From a virus (Duplodnaviria; Caudoviricetes), in IMG/VR virus record IMGVR_UViG_3300025101_000005, positions 1 through 55,708 of that record: a stretch of 55,708 nt of DNA. One strand, 5' to 3'. Below the pieces are notes generated by a model, which did not search any database, had not been told where the DNA came from, and worked only from the letters and a program-made list of their open reading frames with translations. Below, in pieces: positions 2,348 to 55,708 of this stretch (its first letter is position 1; each line of letters opens with the position of its first letter). The translations under genes and the position numbers were made by a program.

Positions 2348-2354
2348 TTATATT

Positions 2355-6873: not shown

Positions 6874-6885
6874 TAGGAGAACTAG

Positions 6886-8375: not shown

Positions 8376-8386
8376 AGGAGATAATT

Positions 8387-9495: not shown

Positions 9496-9504
9496 GAGTT
9501 TAAC

Positions 9505-11563: not shown

Positions 11564-11567
11564 AGAC

Positions 11568-12137: not shown

Positions 12138-12146
12138 GGAGGCAAT

Positions 12147-12530: not shown

Positions 12531-12539
12531 AGGTGCAAT

Positions 12540-12922: not shown

Positions 12923-13200
12923 CCCCACAGGCAAAGCTCAAAGCGATAAAGGAGCTTACAAGTTCAAAGGGTTGGACAGTTCTTTTAGATGTAATGAATG
13001 ACGAGATTCTGGCGTCTGCCATGTCTATTGCTGAGTCAGCAAACATGGATTTGACAGAAATAAACTTCAGACGTGGCTCAATATGGGCTGCTAAGAGGAT
13101 GCTCGAATTACCTGTACGTCTGCAATCAAAGCTGGAGTCGGAGGTTGCACTGTCTGATATGGACGACAGAAACAAGAACACAGGCAATAATGAGCAATAA
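12919..13200 (+). CDS. hypothetical protein (conserved pre-scaffold position)
   Basis: SKGW.VL...FRRG pattern typical of small genes between portal and scaffold. Confidence 0.7.
   Translation: MTPQAKLKAIKELTSSKGWTVLLDVMNDEILASAMSIAESANMDLTEINFRRGSIWAAKRMLELPVRLQSKLESEVALSDMDDRNKNTGNNEQ
13161..13191 (+). promoter_or_regulatory. phage late promoter motif GGACGAC-N18-AATAAT (scaffold)
   Basis: At the 3' end of the upstream gene; followed by a cUUCGg hairpin (about 13212-13228) and a GGAG RBS. Confidence 0.6.
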
Positions 13201-13244
13201 TTTAAATTAACCCCCCGCTTCGGCTGGGAGAATGGAGAAATAAA

Positions 13245-14318: not shown

Positions 14319-14321
14319 TAA

Positions 14322-14522
14322 TTGTACAAAGCATTTGTGACAATATGTCACTTAATGAATCCTGAGTATTGTATTGTACTGGAAGACCAATACGGCCCGT
14401 ACAAGACAGAGGAAATGTGCAAAAGACGTGCGTACGAAATATCAAGAAAAGTTCATAAAGGCTATCCTATGTACAAGTCTAAAAGGTTTAGATGTCCTAA
14501 AATTGGAGATTATGATTTATAG
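14322..14522 (+). CDS. hypothetical Cys-containing protein
   Basis: TTG start; C...C...GPY.TEEMC..R...C motif. Confidence 0.6.
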   Translation: MYKAFVTICHLMNPEYCIVLEDQYGPYKTEEMCKRRAYEISRKVHKGYPMYKSKRFRCPKIGDYDL

Positions 14523-14554
14523 GGATGACAAGTACATAGTTTATAACATATCAT
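14523..14554 (+). promoter_or_regulatory. variant late promoter GGATGAC-N19-TATCAT (capsid)
   Basis: Begins right after a stop codon; one mismatch and one extra spacer base relative to the consensus. Confidence 0.55.
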
Positions 14555-14673
14555 ACTAATAACACACAAAGTTGCGCTACGGCTCAATGTGTTAAAGAGT
14601 TTATGCGATGGTTAATTTCCGTAATGACTCGACTGTAAAATAACCGTAACTAAATGCTATAAGGAGGTAAATT

Positions 14674-15867: not shown

Positions 15868-15870
15868 TTA

Positions 15871-15901
15871 GGACGACCTTACAGTTCGATTGAGGCATAG
15901 T
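15871..15901 (+). promoter_or_regulatory. phage late promoter motif GGACGAC-N18-CATAGT (tail operon)
   Basis: 3 nt after the capsid stop codon; consensus spacing. Confidence 0.7.
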
Positions 15902-15930
15902 AAGGGGGCAATAATGCCCCCTTACTTTTA
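15899..15930 (+). terminator. intrinsic terminator after the capsid gene
   Basis: AGTAAGGGGGCA-ATAA-TGCCCCCTTACT perfect 12-bp stem followed by TTTA. Confidence 0.75.
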
Positions 15931-15943
15931 TCAAGAGGTTAAT

Positions 15944-16246
15944 ATGACAGAGAAAAAAGTTAGAGCTAGAACGAAAAAAGGTCATTACAAATCTGATGAC
16001 CCGTCTACACCAGATGTAAACGAGGCTTTCGTTCAGGAAGAGCCAAAAAAAGCTTCTGAGCCAACAATAGTTTGGTTTGAAAGCAGACAACCAGAAGCCA
16101 GCATGTTTGATGTAGCTGGTTTGCGTTCAATTAGACGATACTCAGACAATCATTTAGAATGGAAAGTAATGTCAGATGACGTTGCTAGGTTTGAGAAAGA
16201 CCACTTTATTATGAATGGAAGGGTACGTAGGAAGGTTGGAAGCTAA
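15944..16246 (+). CDS. hypothetical protein with RAR..KG.Y..DDPSTPDVNEA motif
   Basis: GAGG RBS before ATG 15944; coupled to the next gene. Confidence 0.7.
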   Translation: MTEKKVRARTKKGHYKSDDPSTPDVNEAFVQEEPKKASEPTIVWFESRQPEASMFDVAGLRSIRRYSDNHLEWKVMSDDVARFEKDHFIMNGRVRRKVGS

Positions 16247-16785
16247 TGCCAACAGTTACAACTGATACCGCTACTGAAACAAGCAACACTAATCCTCACA
16301 TACGTGAGAAAAACTCTCCCCTTGAGAGTCTAATATTTCAGGCGCTAAGACGTTACGGCGATTTTAGCCCTGGAACATTAGATGGGGATGTAGGCTTGAT
16401 GTTCCTTGAGTTTGCAAACATGGTTGTTGACGATATACGTATGCACCCATACGCACCGTCAACCACTACCACCGCAACATCTGGTGACACAACAACCACC
16501 ACAACAACAGTAAATGGCATAGATTATTATGAATCTTTGCAAGACGTTCGTGAGATTGACGATATTATCATAGTCCAAGGATTACTTTATCATTACGCTT
16601 TGCAACAAGGCAGTGAAAAAGTGTCCGTGTATTTACCAACATACAACACAACCCTTAATAGGCAGTTGTGGAGACAGAAGAATGGCAATACAAAGATACG
16701 TATGACTGTTGTGGATGACGGCACAAACAAAGGAAACATTAATAAAGGAAAAACAAATACAGTAAATGGAACGGTCACCTACTAA
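16246..16785 (+). CDS. putative head-tail adaptor (tail tubular protein A-like)
   Basis: Position after the capsid gene and size; LIFQALRRYG and IIVQGLLYHY helices. Confidence 0.6.
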   Translation: MPTVTTDTATETSNTNPHIREKNSPLESLIFQALRRYGDFSPGTLDGDVGLMFLEFANMVVDDIRMHPYAPSTTTTATSGDTTTTTTTVNGIDYYESLQDVREIDDIIIVQGLLYHYALQQGSEKVSVYLPTYNTTLNRQLWRQKNGNTKIRMTVVDDGTNKGNINKGKTNTVNGTVTY

Positions 16786-18296
16786 TGTCCAGCACTATCA
16801 AGTCTCCAAGTGGGGTAAAAACCAAGGTATTTGCTTACGAGAACTTTCAAGGTCTTGATACATCTCGTGACATAACCTCTTTAGATACTGGTAAGGAGCA
16901 ACACCTAAACCAGATTGTTAATGGCACGGCAGACTGGCGTGGGCAAATAGTTCGTGACGCATCAGTTGTATTTAGAAAAGGTGAGTTCAAAGTAAATCAC
17001 ATTCGCTTCTTTGGTAAGGACGAAGCTTTATGGGTAGAGCAAACAGGCTCTGGTCTTAACTTTAAGTCTGACAGAGACCACGAACTACTAGACGTACACC
17101 CAACAGCAGCAATAGTTTCTACTACAGTATTCAACCAATCAGTTCAGTTGGCTGCAAGAGCAAGGCCAATGTACCGATATGACGGCGTAAATTTTACAAG
17201 AAACCAATCACCGTCAATAAACAATTTGCAACCAGGGTTTCTTACGTCTGTGCAAAGACGTCTTGTAATTGCTGGAATCCCAGGTAGAGAAACGCAAGTA
17301 CACTTAAGTCGTGTAGACCAAGACGAGATATTTCCTGAAGACGAAGACCCAGCATCAACAAACGTCTTGCGAGCTGGATTTATAGACATTGCAAACTTGC
17401 TTGGAACAGCTGACCAAATAACTGGTCTTGGCTCATTCGAGCAAAACAGATTGGCAGTATTTACTGCTGACCGAGCCATCATATTTAAAATAGACCCAAG
17501 TATAGATAACTGGCTTGTTGATGATAATGCAAACATCAACATTGGCTGTGCATCTCACAATAGCATTGTAAACGCTGGAACAGACCTGTTGTTCTGCTCA
17601 AGGTCTGGCATACATTCAATTAAACGTTCAGAAGACAACGGTATATTGGTTTTCTCATACAGTCTTTCAGATAAAATTGATATTTTATACAGAGAGCTAT
17701 TTGAATCTGTAGAAGACCCAGAGCAGATTAGCGCCGTTTTTGACCAAGACACAGCACAATACCATTTGTTTTTCCCACAAGCTGGTGGGTTTTTATGTAC
17801 AAGACTTACTTTATCTATGAACCCAGAAGGTGGTCAACCACAACCAAAGTTTAGTACAGGAACCTTTTTAAATTCTAGGTGTGGTGCGTTTCTTAACGGG
17901 AAACTTTTGTTTGGTACAACTGGTGGTGTTTTTGAGTTATTAAAGGTAGAAGAGGTTAAGGATAATTCTATCACTCCAGAACTAACAGTGACGACACCGC
18001 TTTTGTGGCATGGTAGTTTAGAGGATACAAAAGAAACATCGAGCATAATTTTGCAGATGGCTGGTAAAGGAAAAGTATCTGTAGAAGCTCAAGACGACAA
18101 AGGAAGGCTTATTGGCACAATGTTTATGGAAGTAGATGACACATCGGACGACAACTACTTTCAAGATGTGCCATTATCAAGGCAATATGAAAGAAAATGG
18201 CAACATAGGTACAGAGCAGCCCAGTATAAGTTTAAAACTGAAGGGGGTGACGGATTGCTTAGACTTATTGGTTTTGCAGTAGTAGTGAGGACATAA
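16785..18296 (+). CDS. putative tail nozzle / tubular protein B-like
   Basis: 503-aa beta-rich, propeller-like sequence (NIGC....SIVNAGTDLLF.S..GI) after the adaptor. Confidence 0.7.
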   Translation: MSSTIKSPSGVKTKVFAYENFQGLDTSRDITSLDTGKEQHLNQIVNGTADWRGQIVRDASVVFRKGEFKVNHIRFFGKDEALWVEQTGSGLNFKSDRDHELLDVHPTAAIVSTTVFNQSVQLAARARPMYRYDGVNFTRNQSPSINNLQPGFLTSVQRRLVIAGIPGRETQVHLSRVDQDEIFPEDEDPASTNVLRAGFIDIANLLGTADQITGLGSFEQNRLAVFTADRAIIFKIDPSIDNWLVDDNANINIGCASHNSIVNAGTDLLFCSRSGIHSIKRSEDNGILVFSYSLSDKIDILYRELFESVEDPEQISAVFDQDTAQYHLFFPQAGGFLCTRLTLSMNPEGGQPQPKFSTGTFLNSRCGAFLNGKLLFGTTGGVFELLKVEEVKDNSITPELTVTTPLLWHGSLEDTKETSSIILQMAGKGKVSVEAQDDKGRLIGTMFMEVDDTSDDNYFQDVPLSRQYERKWQHRYRAAQYKFKTEGGDGLLRLIGFAVVVRT

Positions 18297-19858
18297 TGGC
18301 AAGAATTAGACAACAGTTTCCGCAGAACTACGGCTCTTCTGGAAACATAAATACAGAATTTGAGAATTTATTTCGCTACTTAAATGCAGCAGAACTAGGC
18401 GATAATACTCTCGGTGAATTGTTACAAACAATTTTTAGTAGTACGGGCGAATGGCAAGGCCCAATCGAGTTCAGAAAAGATGCAAGTGGTGACATCCAAT
18501 ACAGGGTCGGAACATACGCAGACGACACAACTGGTTACATAACACTTGTTTCGGCAGCTGAACTACGTGGCGCATCAGGCGCATCTGTTGGTGAAATTGG
18601 GGCTCCAATTATTCACTCAAGACAAGACACAGTAATATCTGGCACTTCAACAACAGTCATTGACTATGCTCACTCAGCTACAGACGAACTTCTTGTATAT
18701 GTAAACGGCATCCTGAAAAGAACAGGAGCTTCATTCGACTATGTTAGCAGCCCAACAGCTGGTACTAGCAGTAATGGAGCGGTTACGTTTAACAGTGCTT
18801 TAGCTAATGCTGATGTTGTTTCTATATACAAGATTAGGTCAACAGCCATAACAGGATTTACAAGGTCAGACACTGTAACAACAGGAAACCAAGCTGTGTT
18901 TGCTTTTGTTCACGACTCAACAGCAAGGCTACAAGTTTATAAGAATGGTATCTTAATGCGTGAAGGTGGTGCGAATGACTACACCACATCATCAACGACA
19001 AATACTGTTACATTCAACTCATCTGTTGCATCAGGAAACACTGTAACAATTATTACAGTTGAGAACACATCTGTACAAGCCGTAACAGGACACATGTTTG
19101 AACAAGACTTTGTTCACACAGATAGTGGTCTTATACAACTGGCAAAAATTAGAATAGACAACAATGCTATTGCCCAAGCAAAAGTAAATGGTTTGTCATC
19201 AGCTCTTACTGCAAAAGCGAAACTTACAGTTTCTAACTCTACACCATCATCCCCAGCAACTGGTGATTTGTTTCTTGATACATCGCAAACACCAAACCAG
19301 TTGAAGTTCTTTGATGGCACGCAGTTCTTAAAGACGTCTCCTGAATCATCTCTCCCGACCTTTACATCAGCTAACGCAAGTCAGTTTGTAAAGGTAAATG
19401 GTACAGGGACGGCTCTTGAGTATGGAACAGTCGACCTTTCCTCCGTTGTTCCAGTAACTCAAAAAGGTGCAGCAAACGGTGTGGCGTCTCTCGACTCAAC
19501 TGGTAGGTTGCCTTCCACACAACTTCCTACCGTTCTTTCTACTGACAGTTTTTTTACTCAAGTAGGAACAGCTGCAAACCAAACATACGGCGTAAAAAGA
19601 ATATTTAAACAAAAGATTAGAATAGACGGCATAGCAGTAAGAACCACATCAGGTACTTGTAGTGTGCAAATATCTGTAGATGGTGTTGGTTTGGGTAGCA
19701 CACTTAGCGCCAGCTCTACGCCTTCTGAAACAGCATTAGGAACACCGATTGAAATAGATGCTTCTGTTTCATCAAAGAAAATAGAATTTATTGTAACCAA
19801 CAATTCTTCAGCGAGTGTGTTAGAAGTAACTATGGCTGTAAGTGTGATTGCGAGTTAA
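18296..19858 (+). CDS. tail fibre/spike-like virion protein
   Basis: Two VY.NGIL...G...DY repeats, PSSPATGDLFLD and GAANGVASLDSTGRLP fibre motifs. Confidence 0.75.
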   Translation: MARIRQQFPQNYGSSGNINTEFENLFRYLNAAELGDNTLGELLQTIFSSTGEWQGPIEFRKDASGDIQYRVGTYADDTTGYITLVSAAELRGASGASVGEIGAPIIHSRQDTVISGTSTTVIDYAHSATDELLVYVNGILKRTGASFDYVSSPTAGTSSNGAVTFNSALANADVVSIYKIRSTAITGFTRSDTVTTGNQAVFAFVHDSTARLQVYKNGILMREGGANDYTTSSTTNTVTFNSSVASGNTVTIITVENTSVQAVTGHMFEQDFVHTDSGLIQLAKIRIDNNAIAQAKVNGLSSALTAKAKLTVSNSTPSSPATGDLFLDTSQTPNQLKFFDGTQFLKTSPESSLPTFTSANASQFVKVNGTGTALEYGTVDLSSVVPVTQKGAANGVASLDSTGRLPSTQLPTVLSTDSFFTQVGTAANQTYGVKRIFKQKIRIDGIAVRTTSGTCSVQISVDGVGLGSTLSASSTPSETALGTPIEIDASVSSKKIEFIVTNNSSASVLEVTMAVSVIAS

Positions 19859-25879: not shown

Positions 25880-28800
25880 ATGGCAAACCAAACAAATTAT
25901 GACGGCATATCATTTACACCACAAGAAGAGGGTGCAACAGACGTAGGATACCTTAACGTATCCCCCGACCAAATCACAAAAGACCCCCGATTTCTTACAG
26001 ATTTGCGTAAATACTACGCAGACTACGGACAGTTTTATTCTACAGACCAAGAATACCTAGACGAATTTTACGAAGACGCTACTTGGCGAGACCTAAACAC
26101 TGCTGGTGCAGTGATTGGTGCTACTTATACTCAAGGCGAGAGTAAAGAAACAAGAGCAAGAGCAAAACGTCTTGAGCAAGCATGGCGTCAGCTCCCAATG
26201 TTTTGGCAAGAAGGTGGTAGAGGCATTGCTTCTGCTGCGCCTGACATTGCTAAAGCTATTATTCTTGACCCAGTAAACCTTATTCCAGTTATTGGTGCGT
26301 ACGGCAAAGCTGCACAAGTAGCAAAAGCAGCGTATCTAGCTGGTCAGACTGGAAAGCAAGCAACAATCGCTGGTGTAAAATCTGGTATTATAGGCGCTGG
26401 TGTTCGAGAAGCTGCAATCGGTGCTGGTGCAGAAGGCGTAATTAGTACAGCAAATCAAATTAGAGATGTACAGCTTGGCTTGGAAGACGAAGTAAGCATT
26501 GGTCGAGTTGCAAAGGATGCAGTTATTGGCGGTGCTACTGGTGGACTTATTGGTGGTGGCGTTCTTGGCCCAGTACCAGCTGTTATTGGTGCAAGACGTG
26601 GAATTAACACAACAGCAGCCCAAACAGACGAGCTTATAAGCAAAGGTCTTACAGGTCAGCAAATCGCAGACACTGTAGCAGCACGTGGCGTTACGGGTTT
26701 TGACGAACTTGTTACAGCATCAAAAGATACAGACGCATTTATCCAGCCAAGTGATGCAGCGACAACAGAAACAACAGCGACCACAGAGTCACCTACAGCT
26801 GAGATTGATGAGAAAATCAATCAAATAAAAACTTTCTATAAAGAAGAGCAAGACCTACTCGATAGTCAGCTAGACGACGGCATAGACCCAGACATTGTTG
26901 CAGAAACAGAAGTAAACCTGAACGAACTGGCTGCACTTAGAGAGTTTGGCGAGAACCTAAAAGCAGAACAAATAGAAATCAGCAAGCTTGAAGCCTCAAA
27001 CAATCCTAACTTAAGGGCTCAAGCTCAGAAGCGTCGTGCAATTTTTGAAAGAAACTACTCAAAGTTTAGACGAGCAACAAGAGGCGGTCTCAATTTATCT
27101 GAAATCAACGAGATTCTTGAGCAGTATAGAGCGAAGCCAAGCGACACTGCTGACGCAAACCCAGTAGAAACAGAAGCAACAACAACTGAAGCTACTGGCG
27201 AAGGCACTACAACCACAGAAGCAGCGCCCGAAGGACGTACAGAAGGCGCAGTTTCAGAAGCTGACACCACTACTACCACTACAACGACTGAAACTGTGCC
27301 AGCAGACGAGACTGTTACAGCCACTGTCGAAGTTAAATTCGATGACATGCCTTTCAGAAACGAAGCGCAGAAAACAAAAATACAATCAAGGTTTAACGAA
27401 GAGTACACCCAAGAACAATTTGAAGCTGATTTTGCAGCTGGCAAAATTTCTGTTGGTAGGGATGGTAAGTTTACACGAGATTCTGTTGGCGAGGTAACAG
27501 CAAGCGCATCATTGGCTAGGGACAGAAAAGCGTTCACAGAAATGATGGATTCAGGCAAAGCTGAACCAAATGAAACTACAGTTACAGCAGAACCAGAAGC
27601 TAAGACAGACGAAATTATTATTGATAGCGAGTCACGAGGAAAAGCTTTAGCAGCTGGTCTTGACCCGAAAGATATTCCAGCAGCAGAGGCATCTGCTTCT
27701 GGTCGTGTTACAAAACGACAAGTTAACAAAGCAATTAATGCTGCAAAGAACAATCCTCCATCTTCTTATGCACAACAAGTGCAAAGGGACTTGGATACGC
27801 TTCTTGCAAACATTGGCAATGACATTGACGTAGACGAGAACAGTCTTAGAGCTTTGATTAGGGTTATGTCCCAGGACAAAGCTTCTTACAAGTCTGACCC
27901 AGACGACATCTTGGCATTGTTTGATGAGTTCAGCAAAAGCGGTATGGCTACAGGCGATAAGGCTTTTACACAAACAGAACTCAAAAAGATACGTCAGCTC
28001 GTTAGAAAGATTCGAGACCCTAAAGATGGCAACCCTGAGTTTTCAAAAGAAACAGCACAGATACTTGCAGAGAGACAAGTTCTCAACGCAAGAGACAATC
28101 CTGAAACGCAGACCGAATCACTGGTTCGCTCTGTTCAAAAGTCTATCGACAACAAAGGCATTTACGAAACAGCTGGTAGAGATACACGTGGACGTATCCA
28201 AGCTATGCTTCGTAAGAGTTCCGTAAACGTAAAACCAAACGAGTTTGCAAAAGAAGAAGCTATTATTAAAGCAACATCTGGCAAGGGGCCAGATGTTGTT
28301 AAGTATATCTCTGGTGGCGAAACAGCTGTAGGCCCAGATGGAAGAAAGATTCGTGTAAAAGCTGGCACTACTTTGTTTGCAGACGGCGTAACAAAGAGAA
28401 GCTTTGTAAGCTACGAATACCTTATGAAAACACGTGGTGTGAACATCGGTAAGAAATCAACAAAGAAAGTTAAACAGCCTACAGACGAAACACCAACAAT
28501 TACTAACGAGGTTGTTCAGAAGCTTGTTGCTGATTTACAGACTGACGGAGATACAGACAAGTTTATTAGAACTGTAAAAGCACTTCAAAAGAAAGGTGCT
28601 GGTGTACCTGAAGAGCCTTCAGCAACTGTAGACGTACCAACAACAAGTGCTGGTAAGAAACTAATTATCCGCTCAAAGAACAATGCTGCTGATGTTCGTA
28701 TGATTAGCCAAAAGCAAATCAGCGAAGGCAAAGGCATAGAAGCTATTATCGGTCAAAAGGGTGGGCCTAACTCAAACCCAGCAAACTGGGATATTAAATA

Positions 28801-31800
28801 CGCACCTTTTGATGCAGAGGCCAAAACGTTACGAGCAAGACAAGAACTATTTGAAAGCTTACCTTCTGGCGAAGTCCCAGGGCAAACACGTGAAGACGTT
28901 ATTAAAAAGCCTATAGACGAAGCTGAGTTTAATGAAAAAGAACTTGAGCTAAGTGAAGCAGAAGTAGCCATTGTAAACAACATCCTTGGTGAGATGGGTT
29001 TCCGTGGAGCCAATGGATTAAAAGGTAACTCGATTACTGGGCAAACCTTAATGGTTATGGAAGATAAGCTTAGTATGGGTGGGTGGCCTGTAAAAGAAAG
29101 TGCAATGGATGCACGTATTGAGCAGATAGCTTTCCTTGAAAACCTTATGGCTAAGATTGCACCTGATGGTGTAAACAAACCTGTTCAAACAAGGTCAGAA
29201 GCAAAGCTGGCTATAGAGAATATCTTTGCTGGTCACTCATCAGAAGAGATTGCTGGAGCCAAAAGACTTATTGATATGCTTGGAGGAGACCCAGACAAGG
29301 CTCCCCTAATCAGAGGCAAGACGACAGATACTATCGGGGCATACAGAGGTTATTACACACAAAGAGATAACGCTGTAACCATGAGAACTGGTCAGGGTCG
29401 TGGCACTGACATGACTCAGCTTACTCCCACAATAAACGTTTTGTACCATGAGGTTGGTCACTGGGCTTACAGAAACATTCTGACACCAGAAGACAGGGCT
29501 CAGTTTTGGAATATAGCCAAGACACACTACAAAGGAGGCAAGATAGATTCTGACTCCATAGATGAATCACGCTACCTTCAGAACCAAACAATTAGCAAAG
29601 AAGGTCGACCTGATTATGTTGTAAGACAACCTACAAGCCCACAAGAATACTTTGCAGAGCAGTTTGAAATGTGGGTCTCTCGAAAGAAAGCCTCACCAGA
29701 TTTGGCTACAGAGAAGTTTTGGCAAAGGATTGCTACGTACGTCAAAGGTATCTTTGACAGATACTACTATGGCGCTGAACTAAACCCAGACCTAGAGCCT
29801 ATCTTCGCTAAAATTATTCCTGATGTACAAGAAGAAGTTACATTCCGTCTTGGTGTAGATGACAAGCCAAAGACTGATTTCGGACGGCACATACAAAAGC
29901 GTCTTGTTCAGTTGCAAATCACTAAAGAAAACCTAGAAAGTGCAATAGGTCGTGATAGCGCAGATGGAATTGTTGAAGCTCACAAAGAGCTGCAACAGCT
30001 TCTGCTAGAGATGGTTCCGAACTCTAAGGTAGTGGCACGAGATGGTGCAGAGAACGCTATATTCTCTCCACTAAGAAAAGGTGCAGCTGGTAGAAAAGGT
30101 ATGGTCAAGATTATTCGTGACCGAATCAATAACTACGACGAAATGATTGATGGCAAACAGTACGGTACAGACGACGGGTTTGACACACGTAACTATGGTG
30201 ACTTTTCAACTCAAGCAGATATGGAGAAAGTAGCTGAACAGTTAAAAGACTTTTACTACAACGGTTATGGTGGAACATTTGTGCCAGCTGAAGGAATCCC
30301 TGGTCGAATAAAAAACCTAGAGGCTTCGTCTACGCAAAACCTTATTGGCATGATTGATAAGCAGCTAAACTCTGTTTATCAAAAGGTTGAAAACACCACT
30401 AATCTTATTGGTGGTTCTAAACCAGACATGGCTAACAAGCCTCCAGTGCGCTCAAACGGCAAGGTTCAGCCAAGCAAAACAGCCAAGAATACAAAGATTA
30501 AGAACGAAAGAATTAAAGAGCAGACCCTTAACGAAGCTGTGCAAGTTGCAAAAACAAAGAAGAATAGCAGAACAAGGGTTACTACAAAGAATACACCAGC
30601 AATCAATCAGAACTCAGCTGAATCAGTCAAGGGCAAGAAGCTTAATGACTTGCTTGCTTTGTTCAGAAAGCATAAAGGCACAGAGTATGGTGACCAAATT
30701 GGTGTAGAGATTGTAAACAAAATCAAATCTCAGCCAGCGCCAGCCAAGCAAGTACGTGTTTCACGTGGAACATTTAAGCTAAGTGGAGATGCTCTTGAGT
30801 CAGAACTGCTAGATGCTCTGCATGTAGGAGACAAAACTAGGGTAGATGAGGCCTATGCTGAAGTCGTGCGACGTGCAAACAACAAGCGTGCGAAGTCACA
30901 AGGTGGTGCAGCTATACTCAAACCTAAGTTTAAAAAGTCAAAGATGGCTATTGCTACAGAGATAGCTCACAACAAAGGTGTCGTTAGAAACGATGGTATA
31001 CCTTCTGCTGCTCGTGCTTCTGTAAGGGAGATGTTGTCTTACATCACTCACAGAGACACAGAGATGCAACAGGTCAGCAGAACTATTGCATACAGAATGA
31101 TGAACATTCTTAACAAATCATCTTATGGAACTATGCAAAACGCCAACAGAATTACTATGGACATCATGGCTCGTCTTGGTAGGGGTGACTATGCTGTAAC
31201 GGGAGATGGTGCGTTTGGAAACTACAACCTCCCAGACTTTAAAAACTTTAGAAATACAGTAAGACGACTGGCTACATCTTTAAACAAAGGCGAAGATATA
31301 GACAGCGGTATTACAGAACTAAACAATATGGTCATTCGTTCTGGAGCATTGCCACAAGACGAGATGGACGTAATAAGGGCTGCTTACGATGCTCTTGATG
31401 ACACAGCAAAAGCTCAAGTTATTGCCAAGCATGGAAGTAAGTACGAAGGTTACTATTCCATGACCAGAGATGAGATGCTGGCTAATGAATGGTTTGGAGA
31501 TTCTATATCACGATACATGAAAGAAGACATAACTCGTGATGACATTCTCGAACTAAGCATATCTGGCGACACACAAAACATAGCCAACATAGCCGTTCTC
31601 GACAGGGCAATAGACAGAACCATAGAGTATTCTTCTTACATTGCTAATGGTCAGATTGGTAGACAAGACGTTAAGAACGCTTACAGACGTGTATCCATGT
31701 ATGGCGACATGTTTGAAGACAATGCTGCTCGACCACTGGCTGGTTCGCTAGAAGGCAAGTACCTTACACACCCAAGCTATGCAGCTGATTATGCACATGA

Positions 31801-34800
31801 CAGTTTCATGTCTATGTCTAAAGACAAGAAGACAAAGATTCTTAGGTTTGTAAAAGGCGGATACGGGTTTGATGAACCCAATCAAATGCCATTGTTCTTT
31901 TATCATGGTACACCACGTGGCAACAAATTAAAGAAATCAAACAATCCAAACGTGCAGATGCGTCCGTCTGATATAGGGTTGTACGGCCCTGGCATTTACG
32001 TAACAGAGAATCCTTTTGTTGCATCACAGATGTATGCAAGGACACCAACGTTCAATGCAATGGTTGATGCAATAGATGAATCAAACCTATCAGACATTAT
32101 TAAAGAAGATTTGCACTGGGATGCTTTTGAACTTACACAAGTAAGACGAGACATTGGAAAGCTAAGACGACAGTATGCGTCTTTGCAGCCAGATGCTTAC
32201 TTGCAGCGGGAGATTGCAGACGAGAGGGTTATCGTTAAAGAACAGCTAGACGAACTCATACAGGTTGAGCGTGGTTTAGTAGCAAACATGAAAAATAATG
32301 GCATGGAGTTTGAGTCTGATGTCTTGCCTACAGTTATAAAACTAGATAGCCCAGCAGACTTCAGAGCAACAAGTATATATCAGTCTGAAGACGACCCGTT
32401 CTTGCAAGCTATCATGGCAAAGTTTAACGAAGAAGACGTGCCAGCAGAGATGATTTCTTCTCTTAGCATGCGTGGCGTAGATGGCAGAGCATTTGGCCCA
32501 AGAAGTGGAGAAGATATTTATAATTCTGTTATTGATGCTTTTGTTCGCTTCGGTGGCAGAAGTAAGACAGGCGCTCAAGCAGAATTTAACAATATGTTAC
32601 AAGAGATGGGATACGATGGTCTCTTAACTACACACAGAAATAGTTTGAATGATGGGGATGAGTTCGTTCAAACTAATAGGACTTATGGCGCTTCAAGTAT
32701 TCAACATGAAACAGCTGTTTTGTTTAACTCAAATCAAATTAAACACATCGACGCAGATGAGTTTAACGATATGGAATATGGCATCTATGCACAAACCACA
32801 GGCAACCCAATTCCAAAAGGTGCTGTAGGAAGCATGGCAAGGGGTCTTCAAGACGGAGACTTTAACAGCATAAATGACATTCCTGTCGGTGAGTTTGGAG
32901 AGCTACTAGAATCAGCTGGCGGTGACCCAAACTATGTTGGCGCTCTTATGTCTCTTATGAGAAAGAGAACGCTTACACCAGCCGAAGAAGAAACAATTAG
33001 AAAGTCTAGCCCTGTTGGGTTCCTTAAATCACAGTCTAACAACTTGAGAGATATGGGTGCTAGGTGGCTAGGCGACTGGTATGAAAACCATTTCCCTAAT
33101 TTGAACCAACGCTTTGCTGGCATATACTTTCCAATACAGAAGGCAATGAGAGGTTTGCCTGACTCTGATGGAAGCCTGAAAAGATATTTTAAGAAGTCTG
33201 TAAATGTTGGGACAACAGTCACAGACAAAATTGCAGAGCAACCAAAATCACATTCTAAGATTGTAAAAGCTTTACGTTACGGAGATGGAAGCCGTCAAGA
33301 AACAGCTCTTACCGACCAAGAACGTGTTGTTTACAGGCAAATTAGAAGTGCCTTTGAAGCAGAAAGACAAGCCATGTTAGATGCTGGCTTGATGGTTGGC
33401 TATAGACAAAACTATTTCCCACAAGTTTGGAACGCAAAAGCTATTGGCAAAGACAGAGATAAGTTTCTCGAAGTTCTACAACGATACTACAACAAAGACG
33501 CACTTCTAAATGGCAGAACACCTACAGACGAAGAAGCAAAAGACTTTGCTGAAGGCGTTATGATGAAGCTTGTAGATGATGAGGATGGTGCAGACGGAAC
33601 ATTTATTCCAGTAAAAGGCACAACAAGGAGCCCAACATTTGACAACGTTGATTACTCAAGGGTTCTTGAGCTTGATAAACCAGAGTTTATTGATGAGCTT
33701 CGAGACCTAGAAAAGTATTTAGAGAGTGACCTCGATGCGTTGCTTGTTAAATACTTTGAGGGTAGCTCAAGAAAGATGACCCATGTGGACGAGCTTGGTA
33801 TTAATAGCCACGCTGTTTACGATTACATGCAAGTAGCTGAAGAAGGTGTGCAAGGAATTGCAAAACTTCTATCAACAAACAAACAGTTTAGGTTTGACAG
33901 GAGTGCAACAAACGCATCTGGCATGATGGAAACATTTACTTTGCAAGACGTAATACGTATGCCGTTTGCAAACAGTGATGCTGAAGCTCTTAGATTTGCA
34001 GAGCAGTTAGTGAACACACATAATGGTGCTGGCGCTCCAGCTGCAAGACAACTTATATATGCGGTAGCTCCAATAGACCCACGCACTGGCAGAATGAACC
34101 AGACATATAAGAGACGTGCTGATGCAATCGTGCATGCTCTTGATGACTTCAAAGGCAAAACAGGAGTGTTGCAACCACAAGACTATGACTTTATCGAGCG
34201 TTCTTTGAAGCCTGTTATGAAGAAGCCTCTAACAACTATGGGAGGCAAAGCAATACAAACAGCCTCAAGGAATTTAAGATTCTTTAACAACATTACGTTG
34301 CTTTCATACACAACTCTTACATCACTTGGTGACTTGGTACTTCCAGTCATTCGTTCTGGAAGTATGAAGTCTTGGATGAAAGGCATGTTCAGCCTGAGAG
34401 ATGCTGAGATGAGGCAAGCGATTAGAAACACAGGCGTTGCTATGGAGAACATCATTCACGAAAGAATGATTCATCTGTATGGCGCACCTGATGGCAAGGC
34501 ATCACATGCTTTCTTCAATGCCACGTTGCTTACAGACTGGACTGATATGAACAGACAGATAGCAGCAGCAACTGGTTACAACTATTTCCAAGCTATGCAG
34601 ACGAAAGCATTTAACAACTTCAAGGAAGGTGTGCCTTACGCACAGCAACCAGCATCATACAAAACTGCACACAGAGCTTTGAAGATGTATGGTCTTGAGA
34701 TGTATTTGCCTGGGGCAGAAGTAAATCCAAAATCTCTTGGCGATAAAAACGTCTTGCAAGACAAGCATGTTAAGATGGCTATGATAAGATTCGCTGATGA

Positions 34801-35467
34801 TTCTATCTTCCAACCTAATGCAGACGACGTGCCAATGTGGGCTCAGACACCAATAGGTGCGCTTGTATTCCAGCTCAAGTCATTCCCGCTGATGATGACA
34901 CGTCTTACAGGACACGTCTTGAAGGAAGCAAACTCTGGAAACTTTGGCCCACTGTTAGCTTTCGCAGCTCTTGGCCCAACATTTGGTATGGGAACTCTAG
35001 CAGCAAAAGATATTTTGCAGTCACGTGGTGGCGATGATGGTAGAAGCCCAGAGACTAGAAAGAGAAACATTCTTAAATCTCTAGGCTATGACAAGAAAGT
35101 ACACGGAGATGAAGACAACTTCCTTGGCTGGTATGTTGAAGGTTTAATTGTAATGGGTGGTCTTGGTCTTATTGGAGACATGATGCACACAGCAGTTGAA
35201 CAAATAGACAACGGAGCTTACGGACGAGAAAGAATGTGGGGAACATTACTCGGCCCAACGTTTGGTCTTGGCAACTCAGCAGCTAATGTTTTTGCTGGTA
35301 TCGGAGCAGAAGAAGGAAGCGGTAAATCAAGACAAGCAGTCAGAGAAATTGCCAACAGGATACCAGTTGTCGGTGGTAACAGAGCAGCTAAAGAAGCTAT
35401 CGTTGATGCAGTTGCTGGTGAATCTGATGACAATTCAAAGTCTTATCTAAGGAGCATCACTAAATAA
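25880..35467 (+). CDS. giant polyvalent internal virion protein (zincin metallopeptidase and ADP-ribosyltransferase-like domains)
   Basis: 3195 aa; GGAG RBS. Gly/Ala hydrophobic segment near the N-terminus, HEVGH...EYFAE, YHGT...GPGIY.T...GYDG...NQIK, and an ejection-protein-like C-terminus. Confidence 0.8.
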   Translation: MANQTNYDGISFTPQEEGATDVGYLNVSPDQITKDPRFLTDLRKYYADYGQFYSTDQEYLDEFYEDATWRDLNTAGAVIGATYTQGESKETRARAKRLEQAWRQLPMFWQEGGRGIASAAPDIAKAIILDPVNLIPVIGAYGKAAQVAKAAYLAGQTGKQATIAGVKSGIIGAGVREAAIGAGAEGVISTANQIRDVQLGLEDEVSIGRVAKDAVIGGATGGLIGGGVLGPVPAVIGARRGINTTAAQTDELISKGLTGQQIADTVAARGVTGFDELVTASKDTDAFIQPSDAATTETTATTESPTAEIDEKINQIKTFYKEEQDLLDSQLDDGIDPDIVAETEVNLNELAALREFGENLKAEQIEISKLEASNNPNLRAQAQKRRAIFERNYSKFRRATRGGLNLSEINEILEQYRAKPSDTADANPVETEATTTEATGEGTTTTEAAPEGRTEGAVSEADTTTTTTTTETVPADETVTATVEVKFDDMPFRNEAQKTKIQSRFNEEYTQEQFEADFAAGKISVGRDGKFTRDSVGEVTASASLARDRKAFTEMMDSGKAEPNETTVTAEPEAKTDEIIIDSESRGKALAAGLDPKDIPAAEASASGRVTKRQVNKAINAAKNNPPSSYAQQVQRDLDTLLANIGNDIDVDENSLRALIRVMSQDKASYKSDPDDILALFDEFSKSGMATGDKAFTQTELKKIRQLVRKIRDPKDGNPEFSKETAQILAERQVLNARDNPETQTESLVRSVQKSIDNKGIYETAGRDTRGRIQAMLRKSSVNVKPNEFAKEEAIIKATSGKGPDVVKYISGGETAVGPDGRKIRVKAGTTLFADGVTKRSFVSYEYLMKTRGVNIGKKSTKKVKQPTDETPTITNEVVQKLVADLQTDGDTDKFIRTVKALQKKGAGVPEEPSATVDVPTTSAGKKLIIRSKNNAADVRMISQKQISEGKGIEAIIGQKGGPNSNPANWDIKYAPFDAEAKTLRARQELFESLPSGEVPGQTREDVIKKPIDEAEFNEKELELSEAEVAIVNNILGEMGFRGANGLKGNSITGQTLMVMEDKLSMGGWPVKESAMDARIEQIAFLENLMAKIAPDGVNKPVQTRSEAKLAIENIFAGHSSEEIAGAKRLIDMLGGDPDKAPLIRGKTTDTIGAYRGYYTQRDNAVTMRTGQGRGTDMTQLTPTINVLYHEVGHWAYRNILTPEDRAQFWNIAKTHYKGGKIDSDSIDESRYLQNQTISKEGRPDYVVRQPTSPQEYFAEQFEMWVSRKKASPDLATEKFWQRIATYVKGIFDRYYYGAELNPDLEPIFAKIIPDVQEEVTFRLGVDDKPKTDFGRHIQKRLVQLQITKENLESAIGRDSADGIVEAHKELQQLLLEMVPNSKVVARDGAENAIFSPLRKGAAGRKGMVKIIRDRINNYDEMIDGKQYGTDDGFDTRNYGDFSTQADMEKVAEQLKDFYYNGYGGTFVPAEGIPGRIKNLEASSTQNLIGMIDKQLNSVYQKVENTTNLIGGSKPDMANKPPVRSNGKVQPSKTAKNTKIKNERIKEQTLNEAVQVAKTKKNSRTRVTTKNTPAINQNSAESVKGKKLNDLLALFRKHKGTEYGDQIGVEIVNKIKSQPAPAKQVRVSRGTFKLSGDALESELLDALHVGDKTRVDEAYAEVVRRANNKRAKSQGGAAILKPKFKKSKMAIATEIAHNKGVVRNDGIPSAARASVREMLSYITHRDTEMQQVSRTIAYRMMNILNKSSYGTMQNANRITMDIMARLGRGDYAVTGDGAFGNYNLPDFKNFRNTVRRLATSLNKGEDIDSGITELNNMVIRSGALPQDEMDVIRAAYDALDDTAKAQVIAKHGSKYEGYYSMTRDEMLANEWFGDSISRYMKEDITRDDILELSISGDTQNIANIAVLDRAIDRTIEYSSYIANGQIGRQDVKNAYRRVSMYGDMFEDNAARPLAGSLEGKYLTHPSYAADYAHDSFMSMSKDKKTKILRFVKGGYGFDEPNQMPLFFYHGTPRGNKLKKSNNPNVQMRPSDIGLYGPGIYVTENPFVASQMYARTPTFNAMVDAIDESNLSDIIKEDLHWDAFELTQVRRDIGKLRRQYASLQPDAYLQREIADERVIVKEQLDELIQVERGLVANMKNNGMEFESDVLPTVIKLDSPADFRATSIYQSEDDPFLQAIMAKFNEEDVPAEMISSLSMRGVDGRAFGPRSGEDIYNSVIDAFVRFGGRSKTGAQAEFNNMLQEMGYDGLLTTHRNSLNDGDEFVQTNRTYGASSIQHETAVLFNSNQIKHIDADEFNDMEYGIYAQTTGNPIPKGAVGSMARGLQDGDFNSINDIPVGEFGELLESAGGDPNYVGALMSLMRKRTLTPAEEETIRKSSPVGFLKSQSNNLRDMGARWLGDWYENHFPNLNQRFAGIYFPIQKAMRGLPDSDGSLKRYFKKSVNVGTTVTDKIAEQPKSHSKIVKALRYGDGSRQETALTDQERVVYRQIRSAFEAERQAMLDAGLMVGYRQNYFPQVWNAKAIGKDRDKFLEVLQRYYNKDALLNGRTPTDEEAKDFAEGVMMKLVDDEDGADGTFIPVKGTTRSPTFDNVDYSRVLELDKPEFIDELRDLEKYLESDLDALLVKYFEGSSRKMTHVDELGINSHAVYDYMQVAEEGVQGIAKLLSTNKQFRFDRSATNASGMMETFTLQDVIRMPFANSDAEALRFAEQLVNTHNGAGAPAARQLIYAVAPIDPRTGRMNQTYKRRADAIVHALDDFKGKTGVLQPQDYDFIERSLKPVMKKPLTTMGGKAIQTASRNLRFFNNITLLSYTTLTSLGDLVLPVIRSGSMKSWMKGMFSLRDAEMRQAIRNTGVAMENIIHERMIHLYGAPDGKASHAFFNATLLTDWTDMNRQIAAATGYNYFQAMQTKAFNNFKEGVPYAQQPASYKTAHRALKMYGLEMYLPGAEVNPKSLGDKNVLQDKHVKMAMIRFADDSIFQPNADDVPMWAQTPIGALVFQLKSFPLMMTRLTGHVLKEANSGNFGPLLAFAALGPTFGMGTLAAKDILQSRGGDDGRSPETRKRNILKSLGYDKKVHGDEDNFLGWYVEGLIVMGGLGLIGDMMHTAVEQIDNGAYGRERMWGTLLGPTFGLGNSAANVFAGIGAEEGSGKSRQAVREIANRIPVVGGNRAAKEAIVDAVAGESDDNSKSYLRSITK

Positions 35468-40191: not shown

Positions 40192-40609
40192 TTTTAACTA
40201 CCCTCACTTTCGGTTTGTCTAAATTGCGTGTTAAGCAATATCTGATTTCATTTTGAGTTTCCAAAGGCATCTTTGTGTACTGCCTTTTATCTATGCTAAG
40301 ATTACGCCTTACATAATTTGGAAGAGGTTTCTCTTCAAAATGTTTTTCAAGCGCATCCTTATCCCAAGACCATCTTTCAGTACGAGAAACAGTGACCTCA
40401 TACAATCCTAAGTCTTTGGATTGTGAGCCTGACTCCTCTGGAAATAATCTTGAAATGTCTCCCTCTAGCACAGATATTTGCTCATCGAGGGTCTGCCGTT
40501 CTTGGCTTAGTTTATACAGCTTGGAAGACATTTCCTCCAATCGCTGTGTCGTTTTAGATGCGACATCATCTTTGCGTGTTTTGTCAAACACGTCCCAACT
40601 ATCAGTCAT
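40175..40609 (-). CDS. hypothetical protein, recombination module
   Basis: AGGAGG RBS; coiled-coil N-half. Confidence 0.75.
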   Translation of the reverse strand: MTDSWDVFDKTRKDDVASKTTQRLEEMSSKLYKLSQERQTLDEQISVLEGDISRLFPEESGSQSKDLGLYEVTVSRTERWSWDKDALEKHFEEKPLPNYVRRNLSIDKRQYTKMPLETQNEIRYCLTRNLDKPKVRVVKNVQNV

Positions 40610-40649
40610 AAGACCTCCTTATTTTAATGTGTCATCAGCAAATTTTTAT

Positions 40650-40710
40650 GAATGATGACTTGATTAATAATATAGGTGTAGTATAAATTATACATTAATG
40701 CAAGTCAAAA
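40650..40710. promoter_or_regulatory. divergent promoter region with palindromic operator candidate
   Basis: AT-rich spacer between divergent genes. TTGATT at 40660 with TATAAA/TAAATT downstream; palindrome GTATAA-A-TTATAC at 40681-40693. Confidence 0.55.
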
Positions 40711-40720
40711 GGAGAACAAA

Positions 40721-40948
40721 ATGCGACTTAACATCGAGAAGCTCATCACCGATTTGGGTGGGGCGTCTTCGGTGGCTAAGATAACTGGCGTGGTTCGTAC
40801 TGCCCCATACGGCTGGATGAAGAGACGCTATATAAGTAGCCAAGTTCTTGAGAAAATAAAGGAGCATGCTCCAGAAATTGACTTTAACAATTACTTTGAG
40901 GAAGACGAACATGAACGAAAAACTGGCAGCAGCGCTGGATTATCTTGA
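40721..40948 (+). CDS. Cro-like HTH regulator
   Basis: LI..LGG.S.VAK.TGV...A.YGW..R..I pattern; first gene of the divergent unit; AAGGAG RBS. Confidence 0.8.
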   Translation: MRLNIEKLITDLGGASSVAKITGVVRTAPYGWMKRRYISSQVLEKIKEHAPEIDFNNYFEEDEHERKTGSSAGLS

Positions 40949-46934: not shown

Positions 46935-47921
46935 TTACTCTCCTTCAAGTAAGTTGATTGTTGTTTCTAAATGTGTCGGTGCGAGATGCGAATACCTCAT
47001 CACCATTGCTAGAGACGAATGTCCAAGCAAGTCTGCAACCGCTCGAAGAGATGCCCCCTTTTGCACCAAGTGACTAGCGAACGTGTGCCTACAATCATGT
47101 GGTGTAAAATCTTTTATGCCAGCAACGTTGCAAGCGTTGTAAAAGCTGTCGTAAAACTTAGACCTCACCCACTGGCTTCCGTCTGGCTGAGTGAAAACGA
47201 AATCGTCGTCGTCGTCGACTGTCAGAACTTTAGATACTCTGGCCCCCAGCGGAACAGCTCGAACCTTTTTTCGTTTCGTCTTGCCTTTTTTGCTGGTGAA
47301 TAATGCCGAGCCCCTGTGAATATCCTGTGGACAAAGTGCGAAAGCCTCGCCAATCCTCGCCCCCGTATAGAATAAAAAGGTTACGACGTCTTTGATTGTG
47401 CTATCGCAACAGTCAATCAGATGGTCTCGCTCGGTCTCGGTCAACCAACGCAAGCGACTATCATCCACGTTCGGACGTACAATATTTATGCTTGGCACAT
47501 CCCACCCCATACTCTCTGCATGCGATAGCATGGCTTTGATACTGTTCAACTCTCTCGCCACAGTGTTTGGCTTGTTCCCTCGGCTTGTAACGTGGCTCAT
47601 AATTTGCTCCAACGTCAACGCATGCAATGGAACATGTCCAAGTGCAGACGAAAAAAGTCGCATGATTGTTTGGTCGGTAGTCCCAGGTGAACTTGGTCGT
47701 CCCAGGAAAGCATCCGCTGCGTCAGCTGCAAGACGTCTTGATTTCGTCTTGACCTCTCCCGCTGCGACGGCAGCATAAGTTTTTGTGAGTTCGTCTTTGG
47801 CTTTTGATTTCTGGCTCTTGTGAAGGCCCGTGGATTTCCGTACTCGGATGGGTCTTCCGTCTTGTATGACAGTGCCAGTTATCTGCCATACGTCTTTGCG
47901 TAAAGTTAAGTTAAGTGTCAT
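46935..47921 (-). CDS. int: tyrosine recombinase / integrase
   Basis: TGARIGE (R), SKKGK (K), HDCRH, LGHS and RY.H catalytic motifs; N-terminal arm-binding-like W.I.G......RVRKSTG. Confidence 0.9.
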   Translation of the reverse strand: MTLNLTLRKDVWQITGTVIQDGRPIRVRKSTGLHKSQKSKAKDELTKTYAAVAAGEVKTKSRRLAADAADAFLGRPSSPGTTDQTIMRLFSSALGHVPLHALTLEQIMSHVTSRGNKPNTVARELNSIKAMLSHAESMGWDVPSINIVRPNVDDSRLRWLTETERDHLIDCCDSTIKDVVTFLFYTGARIGEAFALCPQDIHRGSALFTSKKGKTKRKKVRAVPLGARVSKVLTVDDDDDFVFTQPDGSQWVRSKFYDSFYNACNVAGIKDFTPHDCRHTFASHLVQKGASLRAVADLLGHSSLAMVMRYSHLAPTHLETTINLLEGE

Positions 47922-54834: not shown

Positions 54835-55239
54835 TTACTTGCGTAATTGCACAAGTGCGTTAAGAAAGCTTGCAAAAGCTTTCTCGTCCATGCCGTTCAC
54901 TTGCGAAGCAAGGTCGGACAGTACATTCGGCTGTGAAGCCTTCGGCTTTGCCTTGGCTTTCGCTTTCGGCTTTGCCGTCGTCTTCGGCTTGGCTGGGGTT
55001 GCTTTAGCAACCTTCGCCCATGCAACCCTTGCCTCGTCGCCAGTCGAGGCGTATGCGTTGATGCGAGCAGTGTCGTTGCCCTTTAGGGCTTTGAGCAAGT
55101 TGCCCCAACGCTTACGCTTGGAAGACTTCGTCTTCGTCTCCACGTAAGCCACGAGTTCAGCTTTCACCTTCTGCGACTTTGTCGTGGAAAACTGCTTCGC
55201 AACTTCGGTAGCTGATGGGTTTGTGTTTGCATGTGTCAT
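54835..55239 (-). CDS. first early gene, basic protein with histone-H1-like AKP segment
   Basis: GAGGAG RBS before MTHANTN; AKATPAKPKTTAKPKAKAKAKPKA. Confidence 0.75.
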   Translation of the reverse strand: MTHANTNPSATEVAKQFSTTKSQKVKAELVAYVETKTKSSKRKRWGNLLKALKGNDTARINAYASTGDEARVAWAKVAKATPAKPKTTAKPKAKAKAKPKASQPNVLSDLASQVNGMDEKAFASFLNALVQLRK

Positions 55240-55323
55240 GTGAGTTCTCCTCGTGCGTTGGTTGAGAACCTCGTGTGTAACGCACAGAACACGTCGAGGT
55301 TGAACCGAGAAAATCGGCTCACC

Positions 55324-55349
55324 ATAAAAGTTCCTTCGGAACCGCACGT
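55324..55349 (-). promoter_or_regulatory. early leader element ACGTGCG-N6-AAGGAACTTTTAT, copy 1
   Basis: Same blocks and spacing as 53574-53599; upstream of the first early gene. Confidence 0.65.
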
Positions 55350-55352
55350 GAG

Positions 55353-55383
55353 GGACGACTCGCCGTCTCGTTCCGTCTAAACT
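55353..55383 (+). promoter_or_regulatory. phage late promoter motif GGACGAC-N18-TAAACT (terminase operon)
   Basis: Consensus spacing; points across the contig junction into terS. Confidence 0.7.
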
Positions 55384-55389
55384 GCTGAA

Positions 55390-55625
55390 ATGATTACACA
55401 TGCGTTACTTTCAGGCATTGTTCAGAGCCTACCGAGGCTAAAATTGAAAATTTTAGCACGCACACGTAGGAAAAACCCCTACATAGGGAGTCAAAACCCT
55501 TGTAGAACAAGGGTTTACATGCGTTATGTGACTGATTTGTGCCTGAAACACGTGCAAGACGAGGCTGGGGGGAGGGGGTCATCCCGCCCGCCACTCGCAT
55601 TGCACTATTGTCACCTCCCCTACCC
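55390..55625 (+). ncRNA. candidate structured RNA or DNA secondary-structure element
   Basis: Nested perfect inverted repeats: 55409-17/55540-48, 55437-45/55449-57, 55494-503/55507-16, 55489-93/55529-33, 55552-57/55600-05. Confidence 0.45.
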
Positions 55626-55708
55626 AACAAATAATCGGAGCAAAAATTGAAAACGTCTGAAAAAAGAAGTACAAAGAAGTGCGAACGGTGCGAAAAGGAC
55701 TTTTATGT
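55610..55708. repeat. 99-bp terminal direct repeat, copy 2
   Basis: Identical to bases 1-99. Confidence 0.95.

Follow-up and report, generated by a model that had tools for sequence, protein, structure and literature searches.

The late leader of phage lambda consists of the PR′ promoter, the qut site, the 6S RNA and the tR′ terminator. The put RNAs of HK022 are antiterminator hairpins that act in cis; we know of no Rfam model for them, and the likeness to them drawn below is by description. The pac site of the SPP1/SF6 type, arranged as pacL-pacC-pacR, is located at the start of the terS gene. A structured phage RNA that arises from terminase genes, cabRNA, is reported to be sensed by CBASS (PMC10686824).

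The locus analysed here, the DNA immediately 5′ of terS in a marine phage, may be compared with all four. As in lambda, one promoter-proximal, structured non-coding stretch of about 200 nt heads a very long late operon, and the DNA around the promoter, itself a prediction here, is conserved. In contrast to lambda, a hairpin followed by a U-run on the + strand is present in just 4 of 35 lineages, there is no sequence likeness and the first late gene is terS instead of the lysis genes. As with put, hairpins are found a few nucleotides past the putative promoter and might influence polymerase in cis along a long operon; an RNA of the put type would still work from 550 nt away, which is the distance seen in one type of relative (L157). 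The number and form of the hairpins differ from those of HK022 put, however, and there are lineages that lack the hairpin-bearing module. The locus resembles SPP1/SF6-type pac sites in lying at the 5′ edge of terS and in having A-tracts and short boxes that recur, whereas its hairpins change in ways that preserve pairing and its core is far more conserved than TerS. The likeness to cabRNA would be that of a structured RNA, putative here, tied to a phage terminase locus; cabRNA itself is reported to arise within the terminase genes of staphylococcal phages (PMC10686824).

The window, by which we mean the whole 55,708-nt stretch of DNA analysed, is a complete, circularly assembled genome of a CRP-810-type marine phage of about 55.6 kb. 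Since its bases 1–99 are identical to its last 99 (55610–55708), the contig is a circular assembly, and the record is classed under direct terminal repeats. Its TerL shares 76.6% identity with the TerL of Roseobacter phage CRP-810, with the next-best matches at 35% or below; the nearest characterised relatives, at 32–35%, include Aaphi23 and Listeria B054. The gene set is as in the CRP-810 family, with an integrase (46935–47921), CobS- and CobT-like proteins, a primase-helicase and a 3195-aa protein. The ORF for the latter (25880–35467) is within the late operon and has no Pfam match. No tRNA or tmRNA genes were found in the window. The + strand carries every ORF between 38 and 36993, indicating a single 37-kb rightward late operon that begins with terS. 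The terS start is a TTG at 55647, equivalent to window position 38, with GGAG upstream at 55637–55640, and it is separated by a divergent gap of 407 nt from a leftward gene that starts at 55239. The product of this leftward gene (54835–55239, − strand) is rich in lysine and alanine. Small proteins with the same KPKAKAKAK-type repeat are encoded in L157 (964–1383, − strand) and L219 (8183–8521, − strand); this neighbour, which has no Pfam or PHROG match, adjoins the region in several lineages. Another divergent region of the window, at 40609–40722, is AT-rich and has a TTGATT...TATAAA-type promoter-like sequence with a small ORF after it. It is probably an early or immunity switch, unlike the GC-rich region before terS.

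The CRP-810 family, including 251 uncultivated genomes, is described in PMC11288001. These are temperate phages with a global distribution, whose hosts are Roseobacter and probably SAR11 and Sphingomonadaceae; within the main text of that paper, the terms "intergenic" and "promoter" are absent. The paper places the CRP-810 attachment site next to a phage tRNA-Thr gene beside the integrase, and we rejected an attP reading of the pre-terS region on this ground, the window's integrase being at 46935–47921 (PMC11288001). PMC12629253 treats another family, of the CRP-822 type.

A TerS search of IMG/VR returned 13 loci and a TerS profile 260 relatives, 80 of which were fetched. The region was placed in their loci by an nhmmer profile and was upstream of terS in most of the 80. 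Among 38 representatives less than 95% identical, 36 were aligned, L025 and L034 being omitted as part of the region is missing from them. An alignment of the central module alone (M2, see below) contained 35 lineages, with L157 and L219 added and three near-duplicates dropped, and an alignment of nine lineages reaches down to TerS identities of 44–64%. A blastn search of 55240–55708 against the phage collection gave zero matches. The non-coding element that the initial annotation had placed immediately 5′ of terS is real and conserved across lineages, and it is the most conserved non-coding DNA seen beside the packaging genes.

We explored the possibility that the region may encode a protein, as the window has an 86-aa ORF at 55390–55650. 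For every one of the six frames, at least one of the 36 lineages carries a stop no more than 10 nt from a central anchor. No frame is open throughout, and the protein-coding reading was rejected on this basis, in agreement with the earlier statement that no credible ORF exists here. CRP-810 gp63 is annotated over the non-coding region; it spans the region with its 16-mer in a frame that differs from that of the window's 86-aa ORF, and it is probably not a gene. Also in CRP-810 (L063 407–880; OR671924.1), the conserved terS start TTG-AAAACGTC was seen 111 nt 5′ of the annotated start of gp62. Initiation at this upstream position adds a CxxC...CSxxC zinc-ribbon segment.

A comparison with Rfam, one of the checks proposed in the initial annotation, left the element without a match. 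Rfam 15 at gathering thresholds gave 0 matches over the whole window, and a permissive scan of 55200–55708 yielded CRISPR-DR34 (17.6 bits, threshold 35, E 1.4) and PhotoRC-I (10.2 bits, threshold 45, E 7.3) and nothing else. In a search for prophage copies in 185,579 representative genomes, 72 pattern matches were obtained, which is about the chance expectation, and 0/72 were assigned to the family by nhmmer. We conclude that the region is a real, family-wide and modular non-coding control region without an Rfam counterpart. Its features in the window, in modules M1 to M3, are as follows.

55318–55352, + strand: M1, 5′ of 55390–55625; CTCACC-ATAAAA box, hairpin H_a GTTCC-TTC-GGAAC (55330–55342) and CGCACGTG
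55353–55395, + strand: 5′ end of M2; GGACGA (55353–55358), a 19-nt spacer and CTAAACTGCTGAAATGATT with a −10-like TAAACT (55378–55383)
55400–55421, + strand: hairpin H_b, ATGC/GCAT, of just 4 bp in the window, with the conserved ATTGT after it
55437–55457, + strand: hairpin GCTAAAATT-GAA-AATTTTAGC, specific to the window's lineage; relatives have a GAAACGTC block here
55476–55489, unstranded: hairpin H_c, CCCC-TACATA-GGG, with A-runs on its flanks
55494–55516, unstranded: hairpin AAACCCTTGT-AGA-ACAAGGGTTT, lineage-specific; most relatives have CAAAATCA-N5-TTAG instead
55549–55562, + strand: 3′ border of M2, CACGTGCAAGACGA; a direct repeat of 55345–55358 (CACGTGAGGGACGA)
55567–55592, + strand: G-run of M3 in nearly all lineages; GGGGGGAGGGGG (55567–55578), TCAT and CCCGCCCGCC (55583–55592)
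55593–55609, unstranded: hypervariable patch with at least four alleles among relatives at TerS identities of 93–99%
55610–55625, + strand: the 16-mer GTCACCTCCCCTACCC, invariant
55626–55657, + strand: terS initiation block, AACAAATAATC-GGAG-CAAAAA-TTG-AAAACGTC, conserved in all lineages

M1 is conserved in most lineages, with stem changes from TT/AA to CA/TG or TC/GA. Its sequence AAGTTCCTTC is more constant than its pairing, because the 3′ arm of H_a is absent in the L179 group. M2 (55353–55562) corresponds to the "domain 1" of the initial annotation. Its conserved order is GGACGA, 19 nt, TAAnnT-GYTGAAAWGA, H_b, ATTGT, RAAACGTS and H_c between A-runs, after which its 3′ part continues with CAAAATCA-N5-TTAG and then TGTGnCACAGACG. 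M3 (55567–55657) is made up of the G-run, CCCGCC, some 22–26 variable nucleotides, the 16-mer and the terS block GGAGCAAAAA-TTG/ATG-AAAACGTC.

The modules are arranged differently among the relatives. The short forms L039 and L059 consist of M1 and M3 without M2, and the segment missing from them is bracketed by the two copies of the direct repeat that flanks M2 (family D6; 79% identical, CACGTG-N4-GACGA). In the eight contigs of the L157 type, M2 is located beyond an oppositely oriented histone-like gene, 550 nt from M1/M3; M1 stays beside M3 in these as well as in the short forms. In L084 and L099, M3 is directly downstream of a terS whose product has no Zn ribbon. M2 is an optional and movable module, and M3 is tied to the terS-terL junction. 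TerS proteins without the N-terminal zinc ribbon were observed in L084 (2550–3619), L099, L219 (8860–9263) and L077. Strictly conserved blocks alternate with patches (55400–55436, 55462–55475, 55497–55506, 55530–55560 and 55593–55609) that vary sharply at TerS identities of 93–99%, and some strains look recombinant, L005 carrying the window's left allele and the right allele of L006.

Every repeat named in the initial annotation was found in its place. The arms TTTCAGGCA/TGCCTGAAA (55409–55417/55540–55548) are complementary at 9/9 bases and GTGCAAGACGAG/CTCGCATTGCAC (55552–55563/55594–55605) at 83%. The arms GCTAAAATT/AATTTTAGC are at 55437–55445/55449–55457 and AAACCCTTGT/ACAAGGGTTT at 55494–55503/55507–55516, ACATGCGTTA is repeated at 55398 and 55517, and GGGGAGG, within the G-run at 55567–55578, complements CCTCCCC at 55614–55620. 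Folding the + strand of 55390–55625 as RNA gave −84.2 kcal/mol, compared with −63.6 ± 4.9 for dinucleotide shuffles (z = −4.19), and folding the − strand gave −85.5 kcal/mol (z = −3.77); for either strand, 0/200 shuffles were as good. The dense pairing reported for this region is beyond what base composition at the dinucleotide level provides.

The whole fold is more stable than chance in the window, yet its two largest helices are not conserved in relatives. The 9-bp helix proposed to close domain 1 is complete solely in the allele group to which the window belongs. The search for a closing helix of long range that holds across lineages was negative, since a duplex test against shuffles for a helix closing the 3′ half of M2 gave a mean z of −0.30, with 2/32 lineages below −2, and this candidate was rejected. 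The long domain-2 hairpin (55552–55605) had a z of −4.53 in the window, compared with −0.36, −0.57 and −0.82 for the three alleles nearest to it, and z was −2 or lower in just 3/23 sequences. The multibranch model likewise did not extend to the family, as RNAalifold kept only 3 pairs across 36 lineages. Excess self-complementarity as such holds in most lineages. The mean z for the fold of M2 was −2.37 on the + strand (13/20 at −2 or lower) and −1.90 on the − strand (9/20 at −2 or lower) in 20 lineages less than 80% identical, with 30 shuffles each. The mean z of M3 was about −0.15, which is no better than shuffles, and M3 is constrained in sequence, not in structure. The initial annotation was right in kind, and the fold drawn there differs from the conserved one.

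Covariation was observed for two hairpins of M2, H_b and H_c; with RNAalifold and the 36-row alignment, the CCC/GGG core of H_c was the sole helix kept. On a sequence-only alignment of 35 lineages, 67.0% of the cells of H_b and H_c were paired, compared with 59.9 ± 1.3 in shuffles, 66 cells had changed on both sides, compared with 40 ± 4.6, and the covariation score was 0.251, compared with 0.155; 0/500 shuffles reached each of these values, counts that are not probabilities because the aligned sequences are related to one another. Controls in which the pairing was slid gave 36–55% paired cells and covariation scores of 0.09–0.17. Changes on both sides occurred in 12 of the 14 pairs (7/8 in H_b and 5/6 in H_c, where 80.5% of cells are paired). 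H_b forms a hairpin of −6 kcal/mol or lower in 11/22 lineages with unrelated stems such as GGGG/CCCC, GGGTC/GACCC and GCCCC/GGGGC. Since pairing is kept through sequence change, these results argue for a single-stranded form, most simply RNA.

These observations bear on two alternatives. One is that the region consists of double-stranded operator or activator sites for two divergent promoters, with the palindromes as protein-binding sites. Its divergent intergenic position, its invariant blocks, the palindromes TGTGnCACA and CCCC-N5-GGGG and the like behaviour of both strands would be in keeping with such sites, but we consider them quite unlikely, since H_b stems are wholly different between lineages yet complementary, the region is 400 nt long with a movable 200-nt module, and the lysis-lysogeny switch seems to be elsewhere, at 40.6 kb. 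The other is that a GC-rich spacer without function is self-complementary by chance, a reading that would accommodate the allele-specific nature of the two largest helices and the unexceptional folding of M3. It is highly improbable. Conservation already contradicts it, blocks being invariant at TerS identities of 44–64% and the 16-mer exact in 35 contigs of the family, and the covariation exceeds that of 500/500 shuffles.

The initial annotation had also called a promoter at 55353. GGACGA and TAAACT are the best-conserved columns of the upstream half: G29, A30, G32 and A33 are invariant in 36 lineages and T53, A54, A55 and T58 at least 90% conserved, and T2, A3, A4 and T7 of the TAAnnT box are likewise conserved in the 35 lineages of the M2 alignment. 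A sigma-70 scan, however, did not call the GGACGA/TAAACT box, because it has no TTGACA-like −35. The GGACGA-19-TAAnnT motif has a single occurrence in the window. A repeated phage-promoter motif was rejected, as three motifs were searched and each was found once, save for the copy of the 16-mer in the terminal overlap. The sole match of the sigma-70 scan, TTGTCA-16-AATAAT at 55608–55635, would place a promoter inside M3; this was rejected because it is window-specific and A-11 and T-7 of AATAAT are not conserved in relatives. On the pattern of conserved bases, we predict that GGACGA-TAAnnT is a promoter with its start near 55390.

The explanation that we tentatively favor, with a probability approaching an even chance, is that the 37-kb late operon has here its promoter, a structured leader and the block for translation initiation. 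A rightward RNA is suggested by the TAAnnT box and by the A-rich linkers of the + strand. No strand bias was seen in either count of wobble pairs, the minimum-energy hairpins having 27 (+ strand) and 22 (− strand) G.U pairs and the aligned H_b/H_c pairs having 27 G.U-type and 44 A.C-type cells. The contigs of two RNA runs, X23 and X24, cover phage positions 53181–53409 and 54889–55177, outside the region, and the two runs contained 0.07 and 0.05 of the sampled words, a coverage that is neutral as to transcription of the leader. Terminator candidates on the + strand of the late operon are few, at 12575–12597 and 17774–17789; their count is above that of shuffles only in 1–19000 (28 vs 14.8 ± 3.8) and is insufficient to argue for a need for antitermination.

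Transcription in the opposite direction was considered as well. M2 might be a leftward small-RNA gene or attenuator ending at H_c, or the leader of a histone-like-CobS/CobT operon. Read on the − strand, H_c and H_a each form a hairpin with a T-run behind it, and both received terminator-like calls in the window. An A-run of at least 3 is found on the 5′ side of H_c in 22/35 lineages, equivalent to a U-run after the hairpin on the − strand, compared with a + strand T-run after H_c in 4/35. The A.C-type cells outnumber the G.U-type, with 13 at the loop-closing pair of H_c that would be U.G on the − strand, and M2 is mobile relative to M3. Nevertheless, the sequence to the right of M2 yielded no leftward promoter, the TAAnnT box points the other way and four lineages have the T-run on the + strand. 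In addition, the histone-like gene of the L157 type has its own strong − strand terminator (a hairpin and T8) between the gene and M2, so leftward transcripts should stop before M2. We regard a leftward RNA as improbable. The rightward leader has difficulties of its own, namely that H_c resembles a − strand terminator in those 22/35 lineages, that the box is without a recognisable −35 and that M3 is downstream of terS in L084 and L099. Moreover, M2 is missing from L039 and L059 and lies 550 nt from M3 in the L157 type, which does not sit well with a simple leader.

The 16-mer of M3, GTCACCTCCCCTACCC, was found exactly in 47 IMG/VR stretches, of which 35 belong to the family by context and 12 are chance matches. 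It is present once per genome, the second copy in the window being the terminal overlap, and its variants are CTCCCCACCCC, CTCCCCCACCCCC and GTGACTCCCCTACC. Bases 55612–55619 (CACCTCC and the preceding T) match what we take to be the 3′ end of 16S rRNA. One IMG/VR contig (L184, 1–45) starts with what is presumably a Nextera transposase adapter, which is joined to the middle of the 16-mer (CCCCTACCCC...). Where TerS is without a Zn ribbon, the terS start persists as a mini-ORF, with 9 codons in L219, 4 in L077 and 29 in L099, and the "MKTS" start is what survives in these three. In L084 the terS block is kept and the start codon is absent.

In M3 of L058, the interruptions of both runs are missing together, and the polarity is flipped in L219, with a C-run upstream and GGGGGG replacing the C-run of the 16-mer. 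The G-run and the 16-mer are complementary in differing registers, GGGGAGG:CCUCCCC in the window and GGGGUAGGG:CCCUACCCC in L077, and the minimum-energy folds of L099 and L084 pair the two. The register shifts and the polarity swap hint at a helix or switch between the G-run and the C-run, with the caveat that G and C runs pair promiscuously and that shuffles fold as well.

For the late-operon leader, we propose the following sequence of events. Rightward transcription would start about 7 nt past the TAAnnT box, near 55390. The first 170 nt or so of the transcript, from M2, would fold co-transcriptionally into the short hairpins H_b and H_c and lineage-specific ones separated by A-rich linkers, and these may affect the late transcript in cis by way of elongation or antitermination, its stability or its processing. 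In M3, the G-run would pair alternatively with CCCGCC or with the C-rich 16-mer, 11 nt before the terS ribosome site, and the choice between them could set the accessibility of both the C-rich stretch and that site.

The position and the constraint of M3 also raise the possibility of a pac site, where TerS would recognise M3, perhaps with the GAAACGTC/TGAAA boxes and A-tracts of M2, and the first headful cut would be made nearby. The element is always at the terS-terL junction, on the upstream side of terS in most lineages and immediately past it in L084 and L099. The constraint on M3 is one of sequence and not of structure, and M3 is present once per genome. The relatives' RAAACGT[CG] at 55437–55457 matches AAAACGTC at the terS start, and M2 and the start of terS share the box AAACGTC. 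The two strands fold equally well. Among the closest TerL relatives that are characterised, Aaphi23 and Listeria B054 (32–35%) are headful packagers. The element is internal in 7/9 genome-length contigs with differing break points, which fits permuted genomes, and these need a pac site.

The ends of contigs were inspected in this context. In four lineages, one contig each begins no more than 1 nt from the A of ATTGT (55418). The window begins at the 16-mer (55610), as do L003 and L154, and L288, a contig of 52 kb, has its end 4 nt inside the 16-mer. At both 55418 and 55610, conserved sequence resumes with that very base after a hypervariable patch. In length, the 99-nt overlap resembles an assembler word size, and because of it and these borders between variable and conserved sequence, we read the contig ends as probable assembly-graph breaks and not as physical ends. 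The window itself has the appearance of a circular assembly opened at a graph branch rather than a true terminal repeat. In two DNA runs, contigs from other lineages align with the window over 55608–55652 only. A pattern scan for left-hand contigs yielded at least 117 stretches; among the matches listed were 6 family loci, with only L288 ending in the region. A search for left-hand contigs with the 220-aa neighbour protein yielded 12 loci, none ending in the region. In one DNA run a single contig spans the entire region, with no reported accumulation of ends, an observation on contigs only that may speak against pac. The behavior of the sequence itself speaks against it as well. H_b and H_c keep their pairing while their sequence changes, which is unexpected for a double-stranded protein site. 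Drift would be expected in a site recognised by a phage protein that evolves fast, but the 16-mer is unchanged where TerS lacks the Zn ribbon or is at 44–50% identity. On balance, a pac site centered on M3 is the main rival of the leader, though a somewhat unlikely one.

The invariance of the 16-mer suggests a further and rather unlikely scenario, in which the region is a family-wide RNA switch read by the host machinery instead of a phage protein, with the G-run toggling between CCCGCC and the 16-mer. By analogy, the 16-mer is similar to the end of 16S rRNA on the 3′ side, and its G-free stretch of about 20 nt resembles a Rho loading site. From its place 11 nt ahead of the terS ribosome site, it would gate Rho-dependent termination or translation of the late operon, and its invariance across different predicted hosts would reflect a universal host partner. 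M2 would then be a movable, promoter-carrying RNA that modifies polymerase in cis, in the manner of put, including from 550 nt away.

The 16-mer together with the terS start provides a compact marker, as 35/47 of its IMG/VR matches belong to the family once context is checked. If the region is the leader of the late operon, it would offer a handle on late-gene timing in CRP-810-type phages. If it is instead a pac site, it would define the packaging specificity, and hence the transduction potential, of an abundant group of marine phages.
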